DNA of 29,601 nucleotides from positions 1-29,601 of IMG/VR virus record IMGVR_UViG_3300044952_001073. One strand, 5' to 3'. This DNA comes from a virus (lineage: Duplodnaviria; Caudoviricetes). Each line of letters begins with the position of its first letter. Position 1 is the stretch's first letter. Made by a program: the position numbers and the translations under genes. The notes under the pieces were generated by a model. The model saw only the letters and a list, made by a program, of their open reading frames with translations, was not told where the DNA came from and did no database searches. This document shows, in pieces, positions 617 to 28,210 of the stretch.

Positions 617-2776
617 ATGCCCCAAAACAGAGTGCCAAAGTTTCTCGAGGACGCCGTATTTGCCGGCGCCGGCGAAGGTCAAAGAAACGACCGCGCCTTT
701 TGGGTTGCGGCTCAGGCCCGCGACGCGCGCATACCGCGGCATGAAGCCGAGGCCATGATTGAGCAGTTTGCCGCGCGTTGCAATCCGCCGCTAAACATGG
801 GGGAGGCCTTGAACGCCGTGGCCTCGGCATACCGGGCCGCCCCTCGGGAAGAGGCGAAGAGCCCCGGGGGCCCAAAGAGCGGCGGCGCATACAAGCCCCG
901 GGCGCCGTTTACCGGGTCCGACGACGTCATTGACTGGGAGGGCGTCATTGGCCCGGCCGCTGAGAAGCGCGCCGCCGCTGAGGCCGCCGGCTCAGGCGCC
1001 CCGGATTTTGTGGAAGAGGTCCCGCCGCCCTCAGGCAACCCGGCCGCGGATTTGCGCGCCTGGCTTGCGGCCCTCTATCAGCCCGACGACCTTCTTAATT
1101 ACATGGTGACAAGTTTTAAAGACGAGGACGGCAAGTATAAGCCGCTCGGCAAGGGCGCCACCCGCTCCCGCTCAGACATAGAAGCCGGGCTTGACAAATA
1201 CGAGGCCAAAGGCTACAAGGGCGACGAGCTGTTGCGGATGGTGTTGGGGGATTGGCAACCGGACGCCGGCGTTTGGGCCCGGATAAACCCGCTTGACGGC
1301 GAGGGCGTTTTCAATACCAACGTGGTCCGCCTTGACCATGTCCTCGTCGAAGGTGACGAGCAACCCATAGAGAAACAGCTTGCAATCATTAAGTCTTTGC
1401 GGCTCCCTTGCGCGGCAATAGTACACTCGGGCGCAAAGAGCGTCCACGCCATTGTAAGGGTCGGGGCCGGTACTGATAAAGCCCTTTATGCCGAGCGCGT
1501 GGCGGCCCTGTTTAAGACGTTGGAAGAGGCCGGGCTAAAGGTTGACGTAAAATGCCGCAACTCTTCCCGGCTTTCACGTTTGCCGGGCCCGAGCCGCGCG
1601 GGCAAGCCCCAGTATTTAGTTGCGGGCCCTTGCGGGGCTCAAAGTTGGGATAGTTGGCAGGCTGAGCGCGAGGCCTCAGACTTCCGGTCCGACGCCATGG
1701 GGCCGGATGAACTAGACGAAGCGCCCGCCCCTGATAGCCTTGTCGGGGACCGCTTTCTTTGCCGCGGCGGGGCCTGGGTGGTTGTTGCTCAGTCAGGCGC
1801 CGGCAAGTCTGTCCTGGCCATGCAGGCCGCCATGTCTTTCTCGGCCGGCCGGCCCTTTTTCGGATTGGCTACTGCAGGCGCCACCCGGAACCTTATGATA
1901 CAAGCGGAAAACAACCGCGGGGACATGCACGAAACTTTTGTGGGGATAAAAAAGGGGCTACTTTTTGACCTTGACGAAAAGGCCCTGCTGAGGGAAAACT
2001 TCAGGACGGTCCATTGCTCGCGCTATACCGGGGCGGTCTTTTGTGAATTTTTGGCGCATCAATGCCGCCTATTCAAGCCGGATATTGTGTGGGTGGACCC
2101 GCTGTTGGCTTTTCTAGGGGGTGAAATATCGAAAATGGGTGACACCGCCCGCTTTTTGAGAAACCAGCTCCAGCCGGTCATTGAGGACAACAATATCGGC
2201 GTGGTGGTTATTCACCATACCGGCAAGCCGCCGAAAACTGAGGAGGGCAAATACAAGGGCGCCGACCTTGCTTATTTAGGCATAGGGTCCTCGGATATAA
2301 CTAACTGGGCCCGGGCAACGTCAACCCTGCTCCGGATGGAAGGCGCCGACAATCGCTTTATTTTTGAGCATGCCAAGCGCGGCGGCCGGGCCGGTTGCAA
2401 GCGCGCGACGGAAATCATGCACGCCTCAGGGGGCGGCATTTACTGGGCTGAGGCCCCTGGCAAGGTGACAGAGGCGGACCGCCGGGATATTGAGGCCCGG
2501 AAACACGGCCGGGACCCGAGCCACAAAACCTATTGCCAGCCCTCAAAGTATGACGGGCTCGGCTTTGAGCAAATGCCGCCGCTTAAGGGCGGGCGGGAGG
2601 CTGAGTCAAGCCCGGCGGTCCTTTGGATTGCCGAGGTACTTGAAAAGCGCGGTTTCCCTGAAAGCCCGGCAAAGGTCAAAAACATAATGAGAACGCTCGA
2701 GCGGCTCGGCTTTATCCATTTTGACACCGACCGCCTCGTTTGGCACGGGTCAATGCACGATTTTACACAAGGATAA
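617..2776 (+). CDS. Primase-helicase (PriCT-like + AEP-like primase + RepA/AAA_25 helicase)
   Basis: N-terminal EGQRND..F..A...R....CNPPL...E....V.SAY (PriCT-1-like). Central INPLDG..HVLVEGD..HSGAKSVHAIVRV..SRLSRLPG (primase-like). Walker A AQSGAGKS, Walker B IVWVDPL, and VIHHTGK and GSS motifs of the RepA/AAA_25 family. Confidence 0.85.
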   Translation: MPQNRVPKFLEDAVFAGAGEGQRNDRAFWVAAQARDARIPRHEAEAMIEQFAARCNPPLNMGEALNAVASAYRAAPREEAKSPGGPKSGGAYKPRAPFTGSDDVIDWEGVIGPAAEKRAAAEAAGSGAPDFVEEVPPPSGNPAADLRAWLAALYQPDDLLNYMVTSFKDEDGKYKPLGKGATRSRSDIEAGLDKYEAKGYKGDELLRMVLGDWQPDAGVWARINPLDGEGVFNTNVVRLDHVLVEGDEQPIEKQLAIIKSLRLPCAAIVHSGAKSVHAIVRVGAGTDKALYAERVAALFKTLEEAGLKVDVKCRNSSRLSRLPGPSRAGKPQYLVAGPCGAQSWDSWQAEREASDFRSDAMGPDELDEAPAPDSLVGDRFLCRGGAWVVVAQSGAGKSVLAMQAAMSFSAGRPFFGLATAGATRNLMIQAENNRGDMHETFVGIKKGLLFDLDEKALLRENFRTVHCSRYTGAVFCEFLAHQCRLFKPDIVWVDPLLAFLGGEISKMGDTARFLRNQLQPVIEDNNIGVVVIHHTGKPPKTEEGKYKGADLAYLGIGSSDITNWARATSTLLRMEGADNRFIFEHAKRGGRAGCKRATEIMHASGGGIYWAEAPGKVTEADRRDIEARKHGRDPSHKTYCQPSKYDGLGFEQMPPLKGGREAESSPAVLWIAEVLEKRGFPESPAKVKNIMRTLERLGFIHFDTDRLVWHGSMHDFTQG

Positions 2777-2777
2777 T

Positions 2778-3413
2778 ATGGAAACATATAAAACTGATTT
2801 ACTAGACCTCAGGAACATTGATTGCATGGAACTATTGAGGGTGACTCCCGACAAGGCTTTCGACCTTGCAATCGTGGACCCTCCTTATGGAATAGGTGAG
2901 GACGGAGGAAAATTCCGAGACAGGAAAGGCGGAGGACATAGAGTTCTTGCCAAAAAAAACTGGGACAATGAAAAGCCCGGAATTGATTACTTTAAGGAAC
3001 TATTCAGGGTTTCCAAAAACCAGATAATATGGGGCGGGAATTATTTTGCAAACTTGCTCCCGGCTTCCAGATGCTGGCTTTTTTGGGATAAGCTAATGGG
3101 AGGAGATTTTTCAGACGGCGAGCTGGCGTGGACCAGCTTCGACTCTGTTGTTAAAAGGTATACAAAATGCAATAAAGACCGTGGCCATATTCACCCAACG
3201 CAGAAGCCTGTTTCCCTTTACAGTTGGATTATTTCTATCTATTGCAAGCCTGGAGACAGGATTTTAGATACACACCTTGGCTCCATGTCTATTGCCGTGG
3301 CTTGTCATTTTTCTGGCCTCCACCTGACTGGAGCAGAAAAAGATAAAGACTATTTTTTGGAGGCCGTCGAAAGAGTGAAACGAGAAACTATGCAACAGGA
3401 ATTTATTTTTTAA
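2778..3413 (+). CDS. Orphan DNA N6-adenine/N4-cytosine methyltransferase (beta class)
   Basis: DLAIVDPPYG (motif IV), IIWGGNYF, HPTQKP, ILDTHLGS (motif I). Likely start is ATG 2778, just after the primase stop, rather than 2721. Confidence 0.9.
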   Translation: METYKTDLLDLRNIDCMELLRVTPDKAFDLAIVDPPYGIGEDGGKFRDRKGGGHRVLAKKNWDNEKPGIDYFKELFRVSKNQIIWGGNYFANLLPASRCWLFWDKLMGGDFSDGELAWTSFDSVVKRYTKCNKDRGHIHPTQKPVSLYSWIISIYCKPGDRILDTHLGSMSIAVACHFSGLHLTGAEKDKDYFLEAVERVKRETMQQEFIF

Positions 3414-6612: not shown

Positions 6613-7905
6613 ATGAAAACGAAAAAAAAGCCCGTTGTAAGATTGGCCCCATTATTGCACGCTATAAAAACCCGCTCCGGACTCGAAGTCAAGACCTGCG
6701 CCTTCAATCCCCGGTCCATTACACCGGACGCCCTTGCTAAGCTGGCCGAGTCAATCAGCCGGGACCCCGCCTTTATGACCCTGCGCCCCATTGTCATTGA
6801 TGAAACCGGCACCGCCCTGGGGGGGAACCAGCGCCTGAGGGCTTGCGTCGAGGTGTTGGGGTTGACCGTTTTACCCGACGAATGGGTCAAACCGGCGCCG
6901 GCGCTTACTGAGGACCAGAAAAGGCGGTTTATGATTATTGACAACAGCCCGGAGGGCATGTCAGGCGAGTGGGATTTTGACGCCCTCAGGGAAGGGTGGT
7001 CCGGGATTAGCATATCCCTCGGGGATATTGGCATAAACATGCCGGACCTTTTCAACCAGGGCAAGGGCGACCCCGACGCGGCGCCTGAGCCCGAGGCCAG
7101 GATTGTTTCACGCCCAGGGGATATTTGGCAACTCGGGCCGCACCGGGTGATTTGCGGGGACTCAACCAGCGCGGCAACGGTTACGCGCCTCCTGGGCTTT
7201 GAAACCCCCGGCCTTATGGTTACGGACCCCCCCTATGGCGTTGACTATGACCCCACCTGGCGTGATAATGCCGGCGGCCAGTTTGGCGACGGGCTGACAA
7301 AGGCCCGCGGCCTGGTTGCCAATGACGACCGCGTCGATTGGCAGGCGGCCTGGGACCTTTTCCCCGGGGATATTGCCTATGTTTGGCACGCCTCTTTAAA
7401 GTGCGCCGAAGTTTGCAACTCTTTGACGGCCGCCGGGTTCATCCCGCGGGCTCAGATAGTGTGGGCAAAATCCCATTTTACCCTAATGCGCACCGGTTAT
7501 CACTGGGGGCATGAACCCTGCTGGTATGTTGTCAGGGCCGGCGGCAAGGCTGACTGGGCCGGGGATAGGAAACAGCAGACAGTTTGGGAAATTCAGGGGA
7601 TGAACCCCGCGGGGCGCAACCGCTCTTCAGGCAATGAAAAGACCGGGCACGGCACGCAGAAACCCGTTGAATGTATGGCCAGGCCAATGCTAAACCATGC
7701 CCCGCGGCTTGTGTATGACCCCTTCCTGGGCTCAGGGACCACGCTTATTGCGGCCGAGCAGACCGGGCGCCGGTGTTTTGCCGCTGAGCTTATGCCGGTT
7801 TATGTTGACATGGCGGTCCGCCGCTGGCAATACTACACCGGAAACAAGGCGGTCCGGGAAAGCGACGGGACCCTGTTTGACGCATTAACACCGACGGAGG
7901 CTTAA
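6613..7905 (+). CDS. ParB-like N-terminal domain fused to DNA methyltransferase
   Basis: NPR...L.ESI....RPIVID....GGNQRLRA...DN...GEWD (ParB/Srx). GDIWQLGPHRVICGDST, TDPPYG, HGTQKPVE, YDPFLGSGTT (N6/N4 MTase). Typical position upstream of terminase. Confidence 0.92.
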   Translation: MKTKKKPVVRLAPLLHAIKTRSGLEVKTCAFNPRSITPDALAKLAESISRDPAFMTLRPIVIDETGTALGGNQRLRACVEVLGLTVLPDEWVKPAPALTEDQKRRFMIIDNSPEGMSGEWDFDALREGWSGISISLGDIGINMPDLFNQGKGDPDAAPEPEARIVSRPGDIWQLGPHRVICGDSTSAATVTRLLGFETPGLMVTDPPYGVDYDPTWRDNAGGQFGDGLTKARGLVANDDRVDWQAAWDLFPGDIAYVWHASLKCAEVCNSLTAAGFIPRAQIVWAKSHFTLMRTGYHWGHEPCWYVVRAGGKADWAGDRKQQTVWEIQGMNPAGRNRSSGNEKTGHGTQKPVECMARPMLNHAPRLVYDPFLGSGTTLIAAEQTGRRCFAAELMPVYVDMAVRRWQYYTGNKAVRESDGTLFDALTPTEA

Positions 7906-13507: not shown

Positions 13508-13945
13508 ATGAAAAAGAAAAACTTTGTTTCTATGATTTTGATGGCGGCCCTTTGCGTCGCCGTTGCTTGCCCCGTATTCATGCCCACAAGCGCTCAGGCG
13601 CAGGCGGTCGTGTCTTTGGATATTCCGTTCGCAAACCCCGAGGGCACGGCTTTTGTGACGACTAACGACCTGAGCAACGCGGCCGGCCAGGAGTTGTCTT
13701 TCATCAAGTGTTGGGGCGTAACCCCGGCCGATACGGCGTTAAACGTATACCTGCGGCATAAAGACGCCGGCGGGACATGGCGAGAAACGGCGCTCCCCAC
13801 GCTGACTTTGGCCGGTGGTGTAATTTCAACCAATCTCGTGAACCTTGCCGCGCCGCTTGTCGGGGCAAAGGGTGACAAATACCGGATTGTCTTTTCCACC
13901 GGAACGAACGGATTTATCCAGGTCCTCGGCAAGATTTACCGATGA
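13508..13945 (+). CDS. Hypothetical beta-rich protein with Sec-type signal peptide
   Basis: MKKKNF + hydrophobic core + AQA. Position normally held by head decoration genes. Confidence 0.7.
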   Translation: MKKKNFVSMILMAALCVAVACPVFMPTSAQAQAVVSLDIPFANPEGTAFVTTNDLSNAAGQELSFIKCWGVTPADTALNVYLRHKDAGGTWRETALPTLTLAGGVISTNLVNLAAPLVGAKGDKYRIVFSTGTNGFIQVLGKIYR

Positions 13946-14001
13946 CCGCGGCCGGTCCGTTTTCATGTTGACGTTTTAACCTAAAAAGAAAGGGTTACAC
14001 A

Positions 14002-14310
14002 ATGCCAGAAGCAACCAAAAAAGCGCCCCCGGTCAATGACGCCCTGCGCCTATACCGCGCGTCGCGCACGCGCCTGAATGAACGCCGGCAGGCTGAGCTT
14101 ACAGCCGCCGTCGCGTCCCTGTCAGGGGCCCAGGCAAAGGAGCCGGCAAAGCGCGGCCGCCCGCCTAATCAGCCGCCTCCGGTGACGCCGCCGCCTCCGG
14201 TGACGCCGCCGCCTCCGGGCAACCCGCCTCCGGCCGGAAACGACGCCCCGCCTCCGCCGCCCCAGGGCAATGACGCCCCGCCTCCGGACGGTGAAACTAT
14301 CACGGAGTAA
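14002..14310 (+). CDS. Proline-rich hypothetical protein
   Basis: RBS AAAGGG; KRGRP motif followed by PPPVTP/PPPGN repeats. Confidence 0.65.
   Translation: MPEATKKAPPVNDALRLYRASRTRLNERRQAELTAAVASLSGAQAKEPAKRGRPPNQPPPVTPPPPVTPPPPGNPPPAGNDAPPPPPQGNDAPPPDGETITE
14173..14218 (+). repeat. 18-bp tandem repeat x2.5 (CCGCCTCCGGTGACGCCG)
   Basis: Direct copies at 14173 and 14191, partial copy at 14209; encodes PPPVTP. Confidence 0.85.
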
Positions 14311-14785: not shown

Positions 14786-17700
14786 ATGGCAAGGAAACCA
14801 AGCCAACTGCCGCTCCCTTTGCGCAAGTTGCAATCGTTTAAGACGGAAACCACCGACGAGCTTATTGCGGCCCTGAAGAAAGCGCGCCGGGATATTGCCG
14901 CAAAGATTGCCCTCGCCGCAAGCAACGCAAAGGCCGCCGGCTCGTCAAAGACCCGCGACGAGCTTTACGCTGAAATAGGCGCCCGGTATGCAACCCTTCA
15001 AGAAGGCATCGACGCCCAGCTTGCGGCCTTGACCTCAGCCGCGGCGAAGGCCGGGCATGAAACGGCGCTCGGGGAAATCTCAGCCGCCGGCGCCGAGGCC
15101 TTTACAAAATACGACCCGGAAAGAAACAAGCGATATTTTGACCTAATAAGACCGGCCAACGGCAAAAGCCTCGCGGCCGTATTCACTGAAAGCATGACCG
15201 GGTCCGCTATCCGGGCCCTCCGGACCGCAACTGTTGACGCCCTCAGGCTTGCCCAGGTCGAGGGGTTGACGGCAAACCAGACGCAAAAGGCCCTGCAGGA
15301 GCGTTGGGATAAATTAGCCGGCGACGAAGGCGCTTTCCGCTTTCAGGATAAGAGCGGCCGGGCCTGGGATAATGCGCGCTATTTGCAAATGTTAGTCCAG
15401 ACAACCGCCCAGCGCGTTTCCGTTGAAAGCCATATTGACACCATGGCGGCCAACGGCTCAAAGTTTGGCCGGATTAGCAACGACGGCGACTCTGATTGCC
15501 CTATTTGCGCGGCATGGGAGGGCCGTATAATCTTGACCGTCGGGGTCAATAAAAACTGGCCGACCTATGAAGACGCAAAGGTCGCCGGCGTATTCCATCC
15601 CAACTGCAACCACCGGCTTGAATACGTTGACCCGAAGGCCGACGCCGCTGAGCTTGACAGGCAACGCAAGGCCGGGGTCCCGGAGGGCGGTTTCACGCCT
15701 GAGGCCATGCAAGCGCAAAAGGATAATTTAGACCTCGAGCGGTTTAAGGCTGAGGGCATGACGCCCGCGGACGCCGCGCGCGCGGTTACGGCGGACCGCT
15801 TGGAAAAGGCAATCCGCCTGGGCACCCTTTCAGACTCAGCCGCGGCCGCGGTTAAAATGATGGCGCCTGCAGACCTTGACGCCATACGGGCCGCCGGTAT
15901 TCCTTCCTTCTCACTTGTCAAAGACAAGAAAACGGCCGGCTATAACAAGGGCGTCGCCGGCGGCATAGTACACGTCGCCAGGACGGCAACGGCTCAGGAC
16001 GTACTAAATGCCATGGGAATAAAGCCGGCCGCGCCTGAGGGCCCTGCGGCACCGTTGCCGGCGAAGCAAGCGGCCGCCCCGGTCAAGGCCCCGGAAAAGA
16101 AAGCGGAGCCGCCGGCGCCGCCGCCTAAACCGATAAACCCCTTCCCGGAAAACGTCGACGGGCTTGAAATAGTCAAAAGCCTCGGCGGGTCAACCGGGGC
16201 AAAACTTGTCCGTGACAAAGACGGCCGGCTTTTTGTTATGAAAAAGGGCGGGACCCCGGGGCATGTTGAAAGCGAGCTGGCCGCGGACAACGCATACCGG
16301 GCCGCCGGCGTTGCGGTCCCTGAGGGGCGGCTTTTCAAGACACCGGACGGGCCCGTCAAGCTGACAAAATACCTGCCGGACGCGGTTTCCCTTGCAGACT
16401 ATTTAGCAAGCGCCACCCCTGAGCAAAAGAAAAACTGTACTGCTCAGCTCGAGGCCTCTTATCACATTGACGCCATACTGGGGAACATTGACGTTATAGG
16501 CCTGGGGGCTGATAATGTAATGGTTGACAAGGCCGGCAAGGTTTGGCGCATTGACAACGGGAGCGCGCTCGGTTTCCGGGCCATGGGGCAACCGAAGGCA
16601 TACGGTGACTGGGGCGAGGGCGCCTCTGAGCTTTTCAGCCTTTGCCGCTATCAGAGAAAATACTTTCCCAACATGAACGGCCGCCGGGCCTCTGTTGCGG
16701 TCATGGCGCAAGACTGGGAGCCGGTCATTGCGGCCCTGCCTGAGGCTGAGGGCGAGCTTGTCAGGATACGCGTGCGCGAGGCCGCGGCCCACCATGACAG
16801 GGCGGTCCGGTTTATCCGCGAGGGCTTTTCCGAAACATACGCAGACAGTATGGGGGAGTTCGGCGCAAAAATCGTTTCATGGGGCGGTCATTATTTTATC
16901 CCCGGCGCCGTCGGGCCAGCCGGCAATACCGGCGAGTTTGACTGGTGCGGCGGGCTCAGGACCGGCGGCCACCCCGACAAAGCCATGGTCCAGACCATTA
17001 CAAAGGGCGCAACAATCGACCCGGATATTAACGGGTGGGCCTCTGTTGTCAAGACCGCGGCAATGTCAATAAACCACCACGTCGATATTCAGGACGGCGC
17101 GCAAAGCGGCCCCAAACTGAAAGCCCTCGAGGACATTTTGCCGGATATATTAGCAAAGGCAAACAAGACCGCGAGCCCCGACGCGCTATACCTTGCGGAA
17201 TACGCAAAAAAGGTTCAAGCGGCTTATATGACATACACGGCCGTCGAGTTCTTTGACCAGAAACAGATTGAAAAACAGCCGCCAGCCCAGGCAAAGGCCG
17301 CGGCAAAGATTGGCGCAACCGCCGCCGCCGCCGCTGAGGCCCGCCGCAAAGAGGCGCTTAAAAGGTTTACGTCATACAAGGACCTGGAGTATAAGATGGC
17401 GGAGGCGCTAAACCCGGCGGACCCTGATTACCCGGCCGCGGTTCCTAGCTATGCCACCCAGTATATGTCAAGCCAGGGCGGTGACAGTTGGAACCCTCAG
17501 GCCTGCGCATGGAAGGGCCTGCTGAATTTAAACGTTTCAAGGCCTCAAAAATTAACGTGGTATAATGCCATAAGTTGCGCAGACCAGGCCGAGGCCCTGA
17601 AATTCGTAACCAATAGCAAGTGGGATTTACAAAAGGCAAAAACAGCCCAGGCAATTAACCACGCCTCGGTTCAGCTTATCCTTGAAAGGTCAACGTTTCA

Positions 17701-18157
17701 CGGCAACCAGCCGGAGTCAAAGACAACCCGGCTTTTGAGAACTGAAAACGACGTGAACGTCAAAGCCCGTTATAAAATCAAGCTAAATTCGATAATGCCG
17801 GAAGGCTACCCCATGGGGATGAACGAAAGCGCGTCCAACATTTCACCGGTGACGGGCGTGGCGGGAAAACTTGAATGTACAACGGTCCGCAATGTTCCGT
17901 GGCCGCGGATATATGGCCTTCATTTTGTAGAGGGCTCCCCGGGCAAAAACGATACCGGATACATGACAGACGGCGAGCAGGAGTTTGACTTTGACGGCCG
18001 CGGCCTTCCCGCGGTCATGGTAAACATGGCCAACATGTACACCTATGACTCGAAGGCAAACAAGCACCGCGGCTTCGATTTAGATAAAATCAAAAAGGCG
18101 TGCGATATTTTACCGGTGCCCCCCAAAGCCCCCTTGACTTCCGGCGCCGAAAGGTGA
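14786..18157 (+). CDS. MuF/minor capsid protein fused to putative kinase and ADP-ribosyltransferase domains
   Basis: N-terminal F.DKSGRAW...Y..M..CPICAAWEGRI..AGVFHPNCNHRL (minor capsid/MuF). Kinase-like GGSTGA, VMKK, ESELAA, DAILGNIDV..DN, RIDNG. ART-like LLRTE, ESAS, EQEF. Confidence 0.85.
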   Translation: MARKPSQLPLPLRKLQSFKTETTDELIAALKKARRDIAAKIALAASNAKAAGSSKTRDELYAEIGARYATLQEGIDAQLAALTSAAAKAGHETALGEISAAGAEAFTKYDPERNKRYFDLIRPANGKSLAAVFTESMTGSAIRALRTATVDALRLAQVEGLTANQTQKALQERWDKLAGDEGAFRFQDKSGRAWDNARYLQMLVQTTAQRVSVESHIDTMAANGSKFGRISNDGDSDCPICAAWEGRIILTVGVNKNWPTYEDAKVAGVFHPNCNHRLEYVDPKADAAELDRQRKAGVPEGGFTPEAMQAQKDNLDLERFKAEGMTPADAARAVTADRLEKAIRLGTLSDSAAAAVKMMAPADLDAIRAAGIPSFSLVKDKKTAGYNKGVAGGIVHVARTATAQDVLNAMGIKPAAPEGPAAPLPAKQAAAPVKAPEKKAEPPAPPPKPINPFPENVDGLEIVKSLGGSTGAKLVRDKDGRLFVMKKGGTPGHVESELAADNAYRAAGVAVPEGRLFKTPDGPVKLTKYLPDAVSLADYLASATPEQKKNCTAQLEASYHIDAILGNIDVIGLGADNVMVDKAGKVWRIDNGSALGFRAMGQPKAYGDWGEGASELFSLCRYQRKYFPNMNGRRASVAVMAQDWEPVIAALPEAEGELVRIRVREAAAHHDRAVRFIREGFSETYADSMGEFGAKIVSWGGHYFIPGAVGPAGNTGEFDWCGGLRTGGHPDKAMVQTITKGATIDPDINGWASVVKTAAMSINHHVDIQDGAQSGPKLKALEDILPDILAKANKTASPDALYLAEYAKKVQAAYMTYTAVEFFDQKQIEKQPPAQAKAAAKIGATAAAAAEARRKEALKRFTSYKDLEYKMAEALNPADPDYPAAVPSYATQYMSSQGGDSWNPQACAWKGLLNLNVSRPQKLTWYNAISCADQAEALKFVTNSKWDLQKAKTAQAINHASVQLILERSTFHGNQPESKTTRLLRTENDVNVKARYKIKLNSIMPEGYPMGMNESASNISPVTGVAGKLECTTVRNVPWPRIYGLHFVEGSPGKNDTGYMTDGEQEFDFDGRGLPAVMVNMANMYTYDSKANKHRGFDLDKIKKACDILPVPPKAPLTSGAER

Positions 18158-18163
18158 TATTAT
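18134..18163 (+). promoter_or_regulatory. Sigma70-type promoter for the genes downstream of muF
   Basis: TTGACT (18134) - 18 nt - TATTAT (18158) with an extended -10 TG at 18155. Confidence 0.6.
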
Positions 18164-18193
18164 TAAACCGTAACAAGGGAAAGAGGTGCAACC

Positions 18194-18586
18194 ATGAACA
18201 GAAAATTCGACGAATATTTCCGGGACCCCGGGCGGCTTTACACTGAGCGGTGGCCGTGGAAGTTGACAAGCGCCCGCCTCGTTGGGAACCCCGGCGGCAT
18301 TTTTGTAAAGCTATACGGCGAAGAAGTGGACCTTTGGAATAATCCGCTATGCTATACGCTACACGGCGCCGTCCCTATGACTTGCCGGGATTGCCCCACC
18401 GCTTTCCCGGATTATGACGACGACCCGCGGTTGCTTATGATTGCCCACAAGGGATGGACCGCAATTAACAACTTCACGAACGAAGGCGGCCCGGACCCGA
18501 CTGGCCCTGTTGAAATCCCAACAGAAGAAGAGGCCGTCAAATATTGCAAGGCAAACGGAATACCGGTGCCTGATTGGATTGAATAA
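18194..18586 (+). CDS. Hypothetical protein, candidate immunity protein
   Basis: 130 aa, RBS GAGG, immediately downstream of the MuF toxin gene. Function inferred from position only. Confidence 0.6.
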   Translation: MNRKFDEYFRDPGRLYTERWPWKLTSARLVGNPGGIFVKLYGEEVDLWNNPLCYTLHGAVPMTCRDCPTAFPDYDDDPRLLMIAHKGWTAINNFTNEGGPDPTGPVEIPTEEEAVKYCKANGIPVPDWIE

Positions 18587-18967
18587 ATGTGGCTATTTAC
18601 AAAGAGCGGCTTTTTCTCAGCCGTCCAACATAGAGAAGCCCCGGACCTGGTCATTGTCAGGGCCCGGTGGCGCAAAGACCTGCAGGCGCTTTTGGTTGCC
18701 AACGGAAACCCGCACGGCGTTGTCATACATTCAAGCCCCTGCGCCGACTATCCATACCGGGCAACCATGAAAAAGGAAACCTGGGCGCGCATGGTTGCGG
18801 CCGAGGCTGAGCGCGTTGACTATGACAACTTCAAGGACGCGGCGCATGACGGGACCGCGCGCGACGCCGCCCTGCTGAAATGCTGGGCCGCCATGCGCGC
18901 CGCCGAGGACCCCCGCAAGGCGGTGGGGGCTTTTCTTCAGCATGACTATTTAGCCAGCCACCGCTGA
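18587..18967 (+). CDS. Conserved hypothetical protein (MW.FT..GF.S..VRAR..DY.YRA..DY.NFK pattern)
   Basis: Abuts the previous stop (TAAATG). The motif pattern recalls a widespread uncharacterised bacterial/phage family. Confidence 0.7.
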   Translation: MWLFTKSGFFSAVQHREAPDLVIVRARWRKDLQALLVANGNPHGVVIHSSPCADYPYRATMKKETWARMVAAEAERVDYDNFKDAAHDGTARDAALLKCWAAMRAAEDPRKAVGAFLQHDYLASHR

Positions 18968-25220: not shown

Positions 25221-25243
25221 TTGACAAAGGGGCCTATATTATG
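25221..25243 (+). promoter_or_regulatory. Conserved late-module motif copy 5 (TTGACAAAGGGGCCTATATTATG)
   Basis: Consensus match; the ATG is the tail fibre start and there is no Shine-Dalgarno. Confidence 0.75.
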
Positions 25244-28210
25244 AAAACTCTTTTTTTTGCCGTCGCCCTCGCCGCTTGCTCAGCTTTTGCCGGGGCAAGA
25301 ATTGAAACCCTGGAAAATGACCTTTCAAAGAAACTGGTCCCGGGGTCCCTTGAAATTACGGCCGACGCAGATACAACGGTCCGCGGCCGCTTTTTATTCG
25401 CGGGCGGGGAATATAACACCGCCGGGTGGACGGGGCTTCTTTTTGTGGGTGTTTCAGGCGAGGGGGTCACGTTTACCAACAGCGCCGCCGGCCGCGGGTT
25501 CATGTCATGGGATATACCCGCAACAATGACGCCGACGAACGGGCGCTATGCCTTCCAAATTTTCGGCGCTCAGGGCGCGCGCATGGAAGAGTGGGCCCGC
25601 GGGGCAGTGACGGTCCGGGGCAACCCGGGGAAAACGGCGCTCCCTGTTGAATGGGTTAAAATGAACCCGGTTTATGTCATAGCCACAAACGCGCTTAAAA
25701 TCGCTCAGGACGCGTCGGGCGCCGCGGCCGGGGCAATACAAGCGGCAGGCGTTGCGGACGCAATAGCGCGCGCGGCAAGCTATACCGGCGGCCTCGCCTA
25801 TGCTCAGGCATTAAGCGCGACGGCCGCAAGCGAAGCAAACGCCTCCGCAATAACCGGCAAGGCCTCAGCCGCCCGGACAAATTACTGGGAGGCGGCATAC
25901 GCGCACGCCCTTGCAACAGGGAACCCCCATTCTTTAACGCTTGAAATTTTGGGGGCCATGCCGGCGGCGGCCGGGGCCGGTTTTTTCACCATTGACCAGA
26001 CCACGCCGCAGACCATTTCAAACGGGCCGCTTGACATAACGGGCAAAATGAACCAATACACCGTGGGCGACCCGTCCGGCGGCCTTTCCCCTTCCTATGG
26101 CGCCGAGTATACCCTTTATGGGTGCTATGATAACGGCTCCTATATTGACACCTCAGCCGGCGGGCCTTTTTACAATCAAGATATTTCAATATATGTCTGC
26201 CAGGCCTATGACCTGCCGGGCGGCGGGACCCTATACAGCTCGCAGGGGTCCGCGTTTTTTTCGGATTATAACGGGGCGTCCTTTTCTATCATGCTACAGT
26301 TTGCCGACTCGGGCAGTACATGGGGCGGCGCCGGCGTTTATTATATCGCCGTTTTATATGACGGGTCCAGCTACTATTGGAAAAATCTAGGGGCCTCGCC
26401 GGCCGTTTTAATTGATAGCCTGAGTTCATGGAATAGCGGCAACCCCGACCCGTATTCAAACACTCCATATTTTATGCAGGCCGGCACCCTTATGGGGCAA
26501 AATGAATGGTATGTTTATTCAGTTGACACCGCCTCCGGTGCGAACGTTGTTTCTTATTTCCCCATGTATTTGTGGGATTACGGCGACAACTATGGGTGGA
26601 AGGCGGACCTCTATTGGTTTGAAGACGCCGCGGCCGACTTTTATATCGTTTGGAATTACACGACGGGCTATTGGAAAGGGACCACCAGCCTGTCATTGAC
26701 AGACGACGGCAACTATTCGACGTGGACCTATGGAAGCCCGCCGCTTGACTATCCCTCGCCGCGAAGCGTGGCGCTTGACTTTCTGAGCGCGCATAATGAC
26801 GCGGTCGCAATGAAACTAAACAAGGACGGCCAATTTGAAACAAGCGTGGCCACCGGCCTGAGCCCTCTAAAAGTTGCGTCGACGACGGTCAATGAAAATT
26901 TAAACGCGGACCTTTTAGACGGCCAACACGCGAGCGCTTTTCAGCCGGCCGGAAGCTATCAGCCGGCGGGCTCGTATGTATCCCCGGCCGCGGCCACGCA
27001 GATTGTTGCGGCCGTCGCCATTACCAACATGACAAGCGCCTCGAGCGGCTTGACGGTTACAAAAAACGGCGCCACCGTTTCACTGTCAATCAGTGACGCA
27101 ACAGCCCCGGCCGTCGCGCTTGCATCTTCAAACGGAATGTTCAGCGCCGTTTTAAATACGAACGGATTTATCAGCGTGGCCGGCCGCACGCCGACCCCCG
27201 CGGTCTTTGCATATTCTAACAGGGTAAACGCCGGGCTCAGCCAATACACCCGGCTCGGAATTGCCAACGGAACGAACTGGATAGCGGGAAGATACGCGCC
27301 CGGCACCGGCGGATTGGATTATAGTTTTGACTATGGCACCAACTGGGCAAACAATGCAAGCGTGCCCAATACGCTCGCCATGATTGGCGTGGCTTATAAC
27401 GGGTCCCGCTATGTTGCCATGATGGGGAGAAGCCAATGGTCGGACCTTTATTATTCTGACACATTAAACGGGACCTGGACCCTTGCTTTGTCTATTCCGA
27501 ACGGCTACAGTTACGGGGAAATAAAATTCGACAATGGAATTTTCGCCGCCACCGTTTATGGCGTCATAACTACAAGCGCGGACGGAATAAATTGGACCAC
27601 GCGCTCTTCAGTTTATGGCGGGTCCAGCCTTCAATATCTGTCAGGCGGCACCTGGGTTTGCGGCAATGCTAATTATATTTCACGCCCGCGGCTCGTTGTA
27701 AGTTATGACAACGCCGCCACCTGGAATACCACGACGGTCTTTGAGTCTTTAACTCAGCGCATACTTGCCCTCGGGAAAATAGGGTCCACGCTCCTTGCGG
27801 TTTCCGGCGACGGCATTTACCGGCTCCCGTTTGACCTTTCAACATTTACAACGGTCCAGGCTTTAAACCCCGTAACTACATACGCAACCGTGGCGGTCCA
27901 TGGTGATAATGTTTGGGTTACAACAAACGGCACGGACTACAGAAGCACCGACGGCGGCTTTACGTTTGCCGACGCGGGTATTGTATCCGGGGCAATAACA
28001 GGAATAACCGTGGCGCCGGACGGGCTTTTCTTGCTTTTCGGTTCCTCGGCATATATCCACCGGTTTAGGGTTTTCAATTCGTTTAATTACTCAGCCCTGC
28101 CGGATAACGGGCTGACAAAAACAAACTGGTGGACCGACGCGTCAAGCGTTGTCCATACTCAGATTTTTAATAAAGGCGTTCTTACCCTTTGGACAAAGAA
28201 CGGGCTATAA
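25241..28210 (+). CDS. Tail fibre/receptor-binding protein with signal peptide and C-terminal Asp-box beta-propeller
   Basis: Tail-fibre motifs HA..TGNPH, NLNADLLDGQHASAF, QPAGSY x2. Asp-boxes YSFDYGTNW, TSADGINW, VSYDNAATW, RSTDGGFTF. N-terminus MKTLFFAVALAACSAFA. Confidence 0.78.
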   Translation: MKTLFFAVALAACSAFAGARIETLENDLSKKLVPGSLEITADADTTVRGRFLFAGGEYNTAGWTGLLFVGVSGEGVTFTNSAAGRGFMSWDIPATMTPTNGRYAFQIFGAQGARMEEWARGAVTVRGNPGKTALPVEWVKMNPVYVIATNALKIAQDASGAAAGAIQAAGVADAIARAASYTGGLAYAQALSATAASEANASAITGKASAARTNYWEAAYAHALATGNPHSLTLEILGAMPAAAGAGFFTIDQTTPQTISNGPLDITGKMNQYTVGDPSGGLSPSYGAEYTLYGCYDNGSYIDTSAGGPFYNQDISIYVCQAYDLPGGGTLYSSQGSAFFSDYNGASFSIMLQFADSGSTWGGAGVYYIAVLYDGSSYYWKNLGASPAVLIDSLSSWNSGNPDPYSNTPYFMQAGTLMGQNEWYVYSVDTASGANVVSYFPMYLWDYGDNYGWKADLYWFEDAAADFYIVWNYTTGYWKGTTSLSLTDDGNYSTWTYGSPPLDYPSPRSVALDFLSAHNDAVAMKLNKDGQFETSVATGLSPLKVASTTVNENLNADLLDGQHASAFQPAGSYQPAGSYVSPAAATQIVAAVAITNMTSASSGLTVTKNGATVSLSISDATAPAVALASSNGMFSAVLNTNGFISVAGRTPTPAVFAYSNRVNAGLSQYTRLGIANGTNWIAGRYAPGTGGLDYSFDYGTNWANNASVPNTLAMIGVAYNGSRYVAMMGRSQWSDLYYSDTLNGTWTLALSIPNGYSYGEIKFDNGIFAATVYGVITTSADGINWTTRSSVYGGSSLQYLSGGTWVCGNANYISRPRLVVSYDNAATWNTTTVFESLTQRILALGKIGSTLLAVSGDGIYRLPFDLSTFTTVQALNPVTTYATVAVHGDNVWVTTNGTDYRSTDGGFTFADAGIVSGAITGITVAPDGLFLLFGSSAYIHRFRVFNSFNYSALPDNGLTKTNWWTDASSVVHTQIFNKGVLTLWTKNGL

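Follow-up and report, generated by a model that had tools for sequence, protein, structure and literature searches.

What purpose could a minor head protein serve that carries two different enzymes? The question is raised by a 29,601-nucleotide stretch of tailed-phage DNA (Caudoviricetes; IMG/VR record IMGVR_UViG_3300044952_001073, 29.6 kb and an estimated 47% complete), here referred to as the window, in which a single gene encodes a MuF-superfamily head region followed by a predicted kinase and a predicted ADP-ribosyltransferase (ART). A sequence-only reading had proposed a packaged, co-injected dual effector used for host takeover, for anti-defence or for killing non-lysogens. The account that we favour, with somewhat better than even confidence, is a packaged and co-injected kinase and ART effector for takeover or anti-defence, with two small proteins guarding the producer cell. 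The domains and the polymorphic-toxin character of the earlier proposal have held up; the killing of non-lysogens has not.

Gene order in the window runs from primase and methylase genes through terminase, portal and major head protein to tape measure genes. The MuF2-kinase-ART gene sits 3′ of the genes for terminase, portal and major head protein, with HK97-gp10-like and tape measure genes 3′ of it (Table 1). Its open reading frame (ORF) and every motif named beforehand were located at the claimed positions of the 1123-residue translation: CPIC at 238, HPNC at 271, SLGGSTGA at 465, VMKK at 484, ESELAA at 495, DAILGNIDVIGLGADN at 562–577, RIDNG at 588, LLRTE at 983 (R985), ESAS at 1014 and EQE at 1064–1066. 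The minor-capsid region, previously placed at residues 1–280, is matched by Pfam Phage_min_cap2 (PF06152, MuF2) at residues 163–277 (E 1.8e-12, above cut-off) and by PHROG minor head protein families across residues 24–278 (phrog_581, E 4e-18; phrog_4611, E 2e-17). Residues 447–1123 gave zero matches in Pfam, PHROGs and NCBIfam.

Table 1. Features of the MuF2-kinase-ART locus (window coordinates; aa, amino acids)
Feature	Coordinates	Strand	Basis
MuF2-kinase-ART gene, 1123 aa	14786..18157	+	ORF call; residue motifs; head-gene neighbourhood
MuF2 (Phage_min_cap2) capsid-targeting region, aa 1-300	14786..15685	+	Pfam and PHROG matches
Ala-rich region and Pro/Ala/Lys linker, aa 301-446	15686..16123	+	composition; variable in distant relatives
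Atypical protein-kinase-like domain, aa 447-700	16124..16885	+	G467-G471 loop, K486, E497, D562, N567, D569, N577, D590
Linker rich in Ala, with an optional domain inserted at aa ~745-825	16886..17362	+	kinase-to-ART gap lengths among relatives
Predicted R-S-E ADP-ribosyltransferase, uncatalogued family, aa 860-1123	17363..18154	+	Q897, S901, W902, K910, R985, S1015-x-S1017, E1064-x-E1066
130-aa gene, candidate ART immunity protein	18194..18586	+	co-occurrence with ART; co-exchange in L002
126-aa gene (MWLFTKSGFFS at the N-terminus), candidate antidote to or partner of the kinase	18587..18967	+	co-occurrence with kinase
Cassette open to exchange: C-terminal part of kinase, insert, ART, most of 130-aa gene	16560..18500	+	window vs L002 four-fold sites; left edge graded, ~16560-16880

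The first of the two predicted enzymes is strongly supported, by predicted fold and by residue conservation, as the atypical protein-kinase-like domain that the sequence-only reading had described. The Gly loop, Lys, αC Glu, catalytic Asp and metal-binding Asn and Asp expected of the CtkA/HipA/PI4KII/actin-fragmin kinase group are all present. Among 120 relatives, E497, D562 and N577 are kept in all, K486 (the conserved lysine of VMKK) in 119, and D569 and D590 in 118 each; from general knowledge of kinases, we take D569 to be the likely catalytic base and D590 a metal ligand. Because the motif residues are near-invariant in these 120 relatives, and those of the ART in 150, neither set of motifs is a chance occurrence.

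Kinship of the kinase with named families is distant. Identity to CtkA/HipA/PI4KII/actin-fragmin-type kinases is 9–18%, the phage head context differs from theirs, and seven residues lie between D569 and N577. Catalytic-loop spacing in such kinases is usually shorter. The HipA_C and PI3_PI4_kinase families of Pfam did not match the window domain, weak HipA_C matches being confined to distant relatives (E 0.024 and 6.6e-4), and PDB sequence searches with single domains and profiles found nothing. The Kinase-PolyVal family of polyvalent proteins also occurs within virion-linked multidomain proteins of Verrucomicrobia phages, but in the available text of its description it has lost the C-terminal subdomain and carries a His...Asp motif (PMC5512222), whereas the kinase modelled here has C-terminal helices, no His in its catalytic loop and no Pfam match.

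The second enzyme, residues 860–1123, is moderately supported as an ART of the R-S-E clade. Among 150 relatives, R985 and S1015 are kept in 150 and S1017, E1064 and E1066 in 149. The R falls on predicted strand 1, S-x-S on strand 2 and E-x-E before strand 5, which is the ART order, and it is conserved; moreover, these are the sole invariant catalytic-type residues in 89 sequences. In a structure comparison (VIA), some 48 of 50 rows were ART-fold proteins (the fold class of about six being assumed), and the top-scoring rows were of VIP2/C2/SpvB/C3-type architecture. The earlier ART claim is borne out by residues and strand order and fits the fold neighbours, but Foldseek against the PDB returned nothing significant for the domain. 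That the domain is no ART at all, its motifs having converged, is scarcely credible: the failure of Foldseek, hidden Markov model (HMM) and HH searches to give a significant match to any named ART would fit, but the ordered invariant residues and the fold neighbours speak against it, as does the fact that the domain fills the slot held by bona fide ARTs in sister kinases.

E-x-E marks arginine specificity in ARTs, and arginine is accordingly the residue that this domain would be expected to modify. The core is very divergent (6–13% identity to solved ARTs) and bears family-specific conserved residues (Q897, S901, W902, K910 and H959), while pierisin, scabin, DarT and Tne2 occur among the lower VIA rows. 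Such traits would suit an NADase or a nucleic-acid ART instead of a protein-arginine transferase, a decidedly improbable option in view of an E-x-E kept in 149 of 150 relatives and of the VIP2/C2/SpvB/C3-type top rows.

The ART family comprises 736 clusters without an existing profile. PF03496 (Alt/VIP2) and PF01129 (ART) were not among the families listed for 89 members at E≤1 (best 25 of 46), and neither matched the window domain itself. An Atlas search gave rows at 0.80–0.81 only, which is chance level, and cultured phages searched with the domain yielded none. A word-index search for stand-alone ART forms also returned none, and missed known fragments of that length as well. The DraT profile (PF07357) aligned with R, SxS, VP and ExE in register over ~190 columns (hhalign E 0.12). 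This score was equalled in 18 of 60 shuffles and a true ART pair, DraT versus a VIP2-type domain, gave E 0.34, so the test is a weak one; the DraT HMM did not match the family, and kinship with DraT is a lead only, not significant.

Kinase and ART travel together. All loci discussed here were recovered via the kinase or the 126-aa gene. ART relatives are the best 150 of 736 matches, to a profile built from kinase-bearing loci and hence biased; a kinase core lies upstream in 120 of the 120 with at least 300 aa of upstream sequence, the other 30 being too short to judge. Viral, genome and metagenome scans (for the metagenomes, 80 retained of 211) gave 194 kinase loci, which were reduced to 148 non-redundant loci and, once 21 cut by contig ends were dropped, to 127. 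Of these, 115 carry an ART or an ART-like domain, with five classes or more represented and 36 of the calls being weaker: the window-type ART in 79, a VIP2-type ART in 13 (eight above the Pfam cut-off), an OspC/DarT-like domain in 12 (Atlas leads of 0.83–0.87 and weak DarT matches), a domain assigned by PARP-like motif resemblance in eight, and other partners in three (ART-PolyVal above cut-off, DUF3626 and one judged by eye). Among the 12 loci without an ART, the ART is broken in one, and in three a VIP2-type ART is encoded by a gene nearby. On a FastTree phylogeny of the kinase core, the partner class switches at least 22 times, and VIP2-type and OspC/DarT-like partners are nested among lineages with the window-type ART. 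Since the kinase keeps an ART partner through so many changes of class, the two activities likely share one goal.

A distant kinase homolog is also found in twenty cultured-phage records. Three of these were inspected: in two, the homolog is fused to a VIP2-type ART and a Nudix gene lies close by, and one of the two bears a particle-associated annotation. Pseudomonas phage Jeremy (on P. putida) carries the kinase with a VIP2-type ART, and Gordonia phage Forza carries it with an ART two genes away.

Such constancy allows another explanation, possible if unlikely, in which the kinase is a phage module dedicated to ADP-ribosylation chemistry, acting on the ART pathway and not as a free host-protein kinase. 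It would phosphorylate the ADP-ribosylated target in a second step of modification, the ADP-ribose adduct, ADP-ribose or another NAD-derived metabolite, or the host enzymes that remove ADP-ribose; or it would phosphorylate the ART and so switch it on or off. The coupling in 115 of 127 loci across at least five classes, the adjoining or broken ARTs of four of the remaining 12, and Nudix domains in five of 24 module proteins scanned and in genes neighbouring the modules of two cultured phages are all in keeping with it. However, some co-occurrence is expected, as among the modifying enzymes of polyvalent virion proteins ARTs are the most frequent (PMC5512222). The ART calls of two partner clusters (12 and eight loci) rest on Atlas leads below 0.9, weak DarT matches and motif resemblance, and the fact that one kinase pairs with R-S-E as well as H-Y-E-like ARTs speaks against one protein target common to both enzymes. 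If this explanation were true, marks written by at least five ART classes would resist removal, the 126-aa protein would be a new enzyme undoing the kinase step, and the 130-aa protein would found a new family of ART-blocking immunity proteins.

Several variants of the module were encountered. Its N-termini differ: 20 of 24 proteins scanned have a MuF1 or MuF2 match, and two add a portal domain. Nudix domains, which could trim ADP-ribose to phosphoribose, occur in the same polypeptide as the module or two genes from it (L015, L016, L031, L032, L036, P0007, L201:8251-9099 and L202:8230-9048). In L029:8543-9292 and nine to 11 related loci (alignment A7), the place of the ART is taken by another uncatalogued C-terminal domain, with conserved H74, Y124, R128 and N196-E197 and Atlas leads to OspC, PARP/DarT and Arr (0.81–0.87). 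In L043:7496-8995 and seven related loci (alignment A8), the kinase is joined to a PARP-like-motif domain, without a Pfam match, whose motifs are split by a long helical insertion. Intein-like insertions (Pfam Intein_splicing, below cut-off) interrupt the MuF domain of two module-bearing proteins, P0005 and L079:2189-8536. In L024:6020-8523, L036:4431-7678 and L089:2-1813, the two enzymes are either truncated or split between overlapping reading frames, which would reflect frameshift, assembly error or decay. Finally, the second alanine linker of the sequence-only reading is Ala-rich as described but not purely a linker, since it also houses an optional ~80-aa domain (aa 745–825, window 17018–17260) that is missing from many relatives and has no Pfam or PHROG match. 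The kinase-to-ART gap is 13–36 aa in 106 of 121 relatives and 99–148 aa in the other 15. The insert also occurs alongside other ART partners.

Partner exchange can be seen in a close relative, L002; neither this exchange nor the two small genes 3′ of the ART figured in the sequence-only reading. Compared with the window, residues 1–600 are 98–100% identical and residues 701–1123 only 32–60%; the gene at 18194–18586 is 63% identical and that at 18587–18967 is 100% identical. Four-fold-degenerate sites differ at 40–56% inside ~16560–18500 and at 3–8% outside. The strong divergence of these sites within the block indicates recombinational exchange; faster evolution of the C-terminus was ruled out as the source, as synonymous sites jump as well. 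A second variable spot follows the major head gene (window 13508–14310), where two genes lie: one of 145 aa, whose product begins like a signal peptide, and one of 102 aa that is Pro-rich. Identity to L002 drops to 68% in the 145-aa gene, against 97–99% in its neighbours.

The 130-aa gene follows the ART. Its family adjoins 56 of 79 loci with the window-type ART and none of the 48 without, and all 77 loci that match it have this ART. Although the seed was hand-picked from 21 ART loci, loci outside the seed were recovered too. No PHROG or NCBIfam match was obtained, and the protein is a candidate ART immunity protein. Cassette exchange together with a co-varying small gene strengthens the earlier polymorphic-toxin reading.

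The 126-aa gene tracks the kinase instead. Its family was scanned independently (80 of 137 matches retained, giving 71 non-redundant viral records). The kinase is present in 45 of the 71, in 34 of them within 6 kb, where the ARTs are of three classes or none, and in 11 elsewhere in the record. These 11 belong to the 37 records lacking a kinase within 6 kb, and include six of the eight near-complete ones. The reverse direction is looser, with the gene found in six of 43 further kinase records and in one of seven near-complete ones. A role as ART immunity was rejected, as no detected ART without a kinase occurs at any of the 71 loci and the gene is 100% identical where the ART has been swapped. 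The family has 14 invariant columns across 21 sequences and no family or structure match in Pfam, PHROG, NCBIfam or PDB sequence searches. The protein likely counters or regulates the kinase. Stand-alone kinases of ~225–240 aa beside a 126-aa family gene, with no detected ART, are seen in L061:6953-8030 and L074:6630-7588, a pairing that resembles a two-gene toxin-antitoxin pair.

A cassette that moves with its cognate small gene also recalls the model put forward in PMC5576092, that of a temperate-phage MuF toxin to which lysogens are immune and which, once virions are released, harms competitors that lack immunity or tilts the choice between lysis and lysogeny. Distant relatives located on long bacterial contigs would fit such a toxin. 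Against it, tyrosine integrase (PF00589) and serine recombinase (PF07508) were unmatched in two near-complete relatives (95% and 100%), in a search that covered these two families and left transposable and plasmid-type lysogeny outside, and both small genes lie within the late block with no sign of separate expression (promoters not searched). A phrog_95 integrase match on a scaffold gene (E 3e-4, coiled region) was dropped as evidence of lysogeny. The temperate model is hence improbable, and the killing of non-lysogens is without support because neither enzyme was found in the two near-complete relatives; host takeover or anti-defence is likelier.

A host among Planctomycetes-Verrucomicrobia-Chlamydiae (PVC) bacteria is a weak guess, made because the closest named MuF2 match (48%) is from a Lentisphaeraceae bin. 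Genome matches of the kinase fall in PVC bacteria in 21 of 37 cases, others including Chloroflexota (four), Acidobacteriota (three) and cyanobacteria (two). Elsewhere in the window, two N6/N4 DNA methyltransferase genes lie 5′ of the terminase (2721–3413 and 6613–7905), the second with a ParB-like N-terminus. A 989-aa late gene (25241–28210), with a weak glycosylhydrolase-family match at aa 818–911 (E 1e-5, far below cut-off), probably encodes a tail or receptor-binding protein.

How does the system compare with known ones? Like the MuF polymorphic toxins of Jamet 2017 (PMC5576092), it has an N-terminal MuF-superfamily domain, a C-terminus that is variable and here exchanged, a co-varying downstream ORF of <150 aa and a place in a virion gene block. 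Unlike those in the available text, it has two enzymes in tandem, its gene is not directly after the portal gene, no integrase was found, and its MuF2 lies outside Firmicutes and Actinobacteria, with relatives mostly in PVC bacteria. The main text of PMC5576092 never mentions a kinase; its supplementary table S5 assigns 'Kinase', but not a toxin domain, to four MuF1 proteins from deltaproteobacteria. Bxa, from a Bacteroides stercoris prophage, is a MuF-fused ART that modifies arginines and is accompanied by two immunity proteins (PMC11699363), much as the present ART is followed by two candidate protective genes. In the available text, however, no kinase is described for Bxa, and of its two immunity proteins the second is an ADP-ribosyl hydrolase directed at the same toxin, whereas the second phage gene tracks the kinase and was matched by no known family. 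R-S-E ARTs such as T4 Alt and the Alt/VIP2 ARTs fused to MuF (PMC5512222, PMC9503650) are packaged in the head and modify host proteins on entry, as the window protein may do, and VIP2-type ARTs stand in for the window-type ART in 13 sister loci. The phage ART differs in being unmatched by PF03496, in having a small gene of its own and in being accompanied almost without exception by a kinase.

MuF-ART virion effectors are already known; PMC5512222 and PMC9503650 describe Alt/VIP2 ARTs fused to MuF as well as a kinase family distinct from the present one. The pairing of the two enzymes appears not to have been described, nor do the ART family and the two partner families. The available text of PMC3482391 and PMC12419801 holds nothing on kinase-ART pairing, and no description of the module was found in the literature searched, which largely did not extend to subscription journals or to the supplements of PMC5512222 and PMC9503650.

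The preferred reading, a co-injected takeover or anti-defence effector, would then operate as follows. The MuF region would load the protein into the phage head, and it would enter the cell together with the DNA; we infer both steps because of what is known of MuF proteins and because one distant kinase-ART relative, gp129 of Yersinia phage fHe-Yen8-01, is annotated 'phage particle associated'. SPP1 Gp7, a MuF protein, is present in 1–2 copies per capsid (PMC5576092). Early in infection, the predicted arginine-type ART would ADP-ribosylate and the predicted CtkA/HipA-like kinase would phosphorylate host proteins, both toward host takeover or the disabling of defence, as with T4 Alt. During late expression in the producer cell, the 130-aa protein would bind and block the ART, with which it is swapped as a toxin-immunity cassette, and the 126-aa protein would restrain or regulate the kinase. 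The system would act in the manner of a MuF polymorphic toxin or of an injected enzyme of the Alt type, lysogeny being unproven.

Three features were not met in the papers searched: a kinase whose accompanying ARTs are interchangeable, an ART family of 736 clusters that lacks a profile, and two partner families, one clearly tied to the kinase and the other to the ART. The system offers direct tests of how MuF effectors act on injection: the cultured phages with the kinase, Jeremy and Forza, make the kinase question testable now, and the two natural ART/130-aa alleles of the window and L002 permit a test of specificity. It bears on whether phages pair phosphorylation with ADP-ribosylation against host defence.
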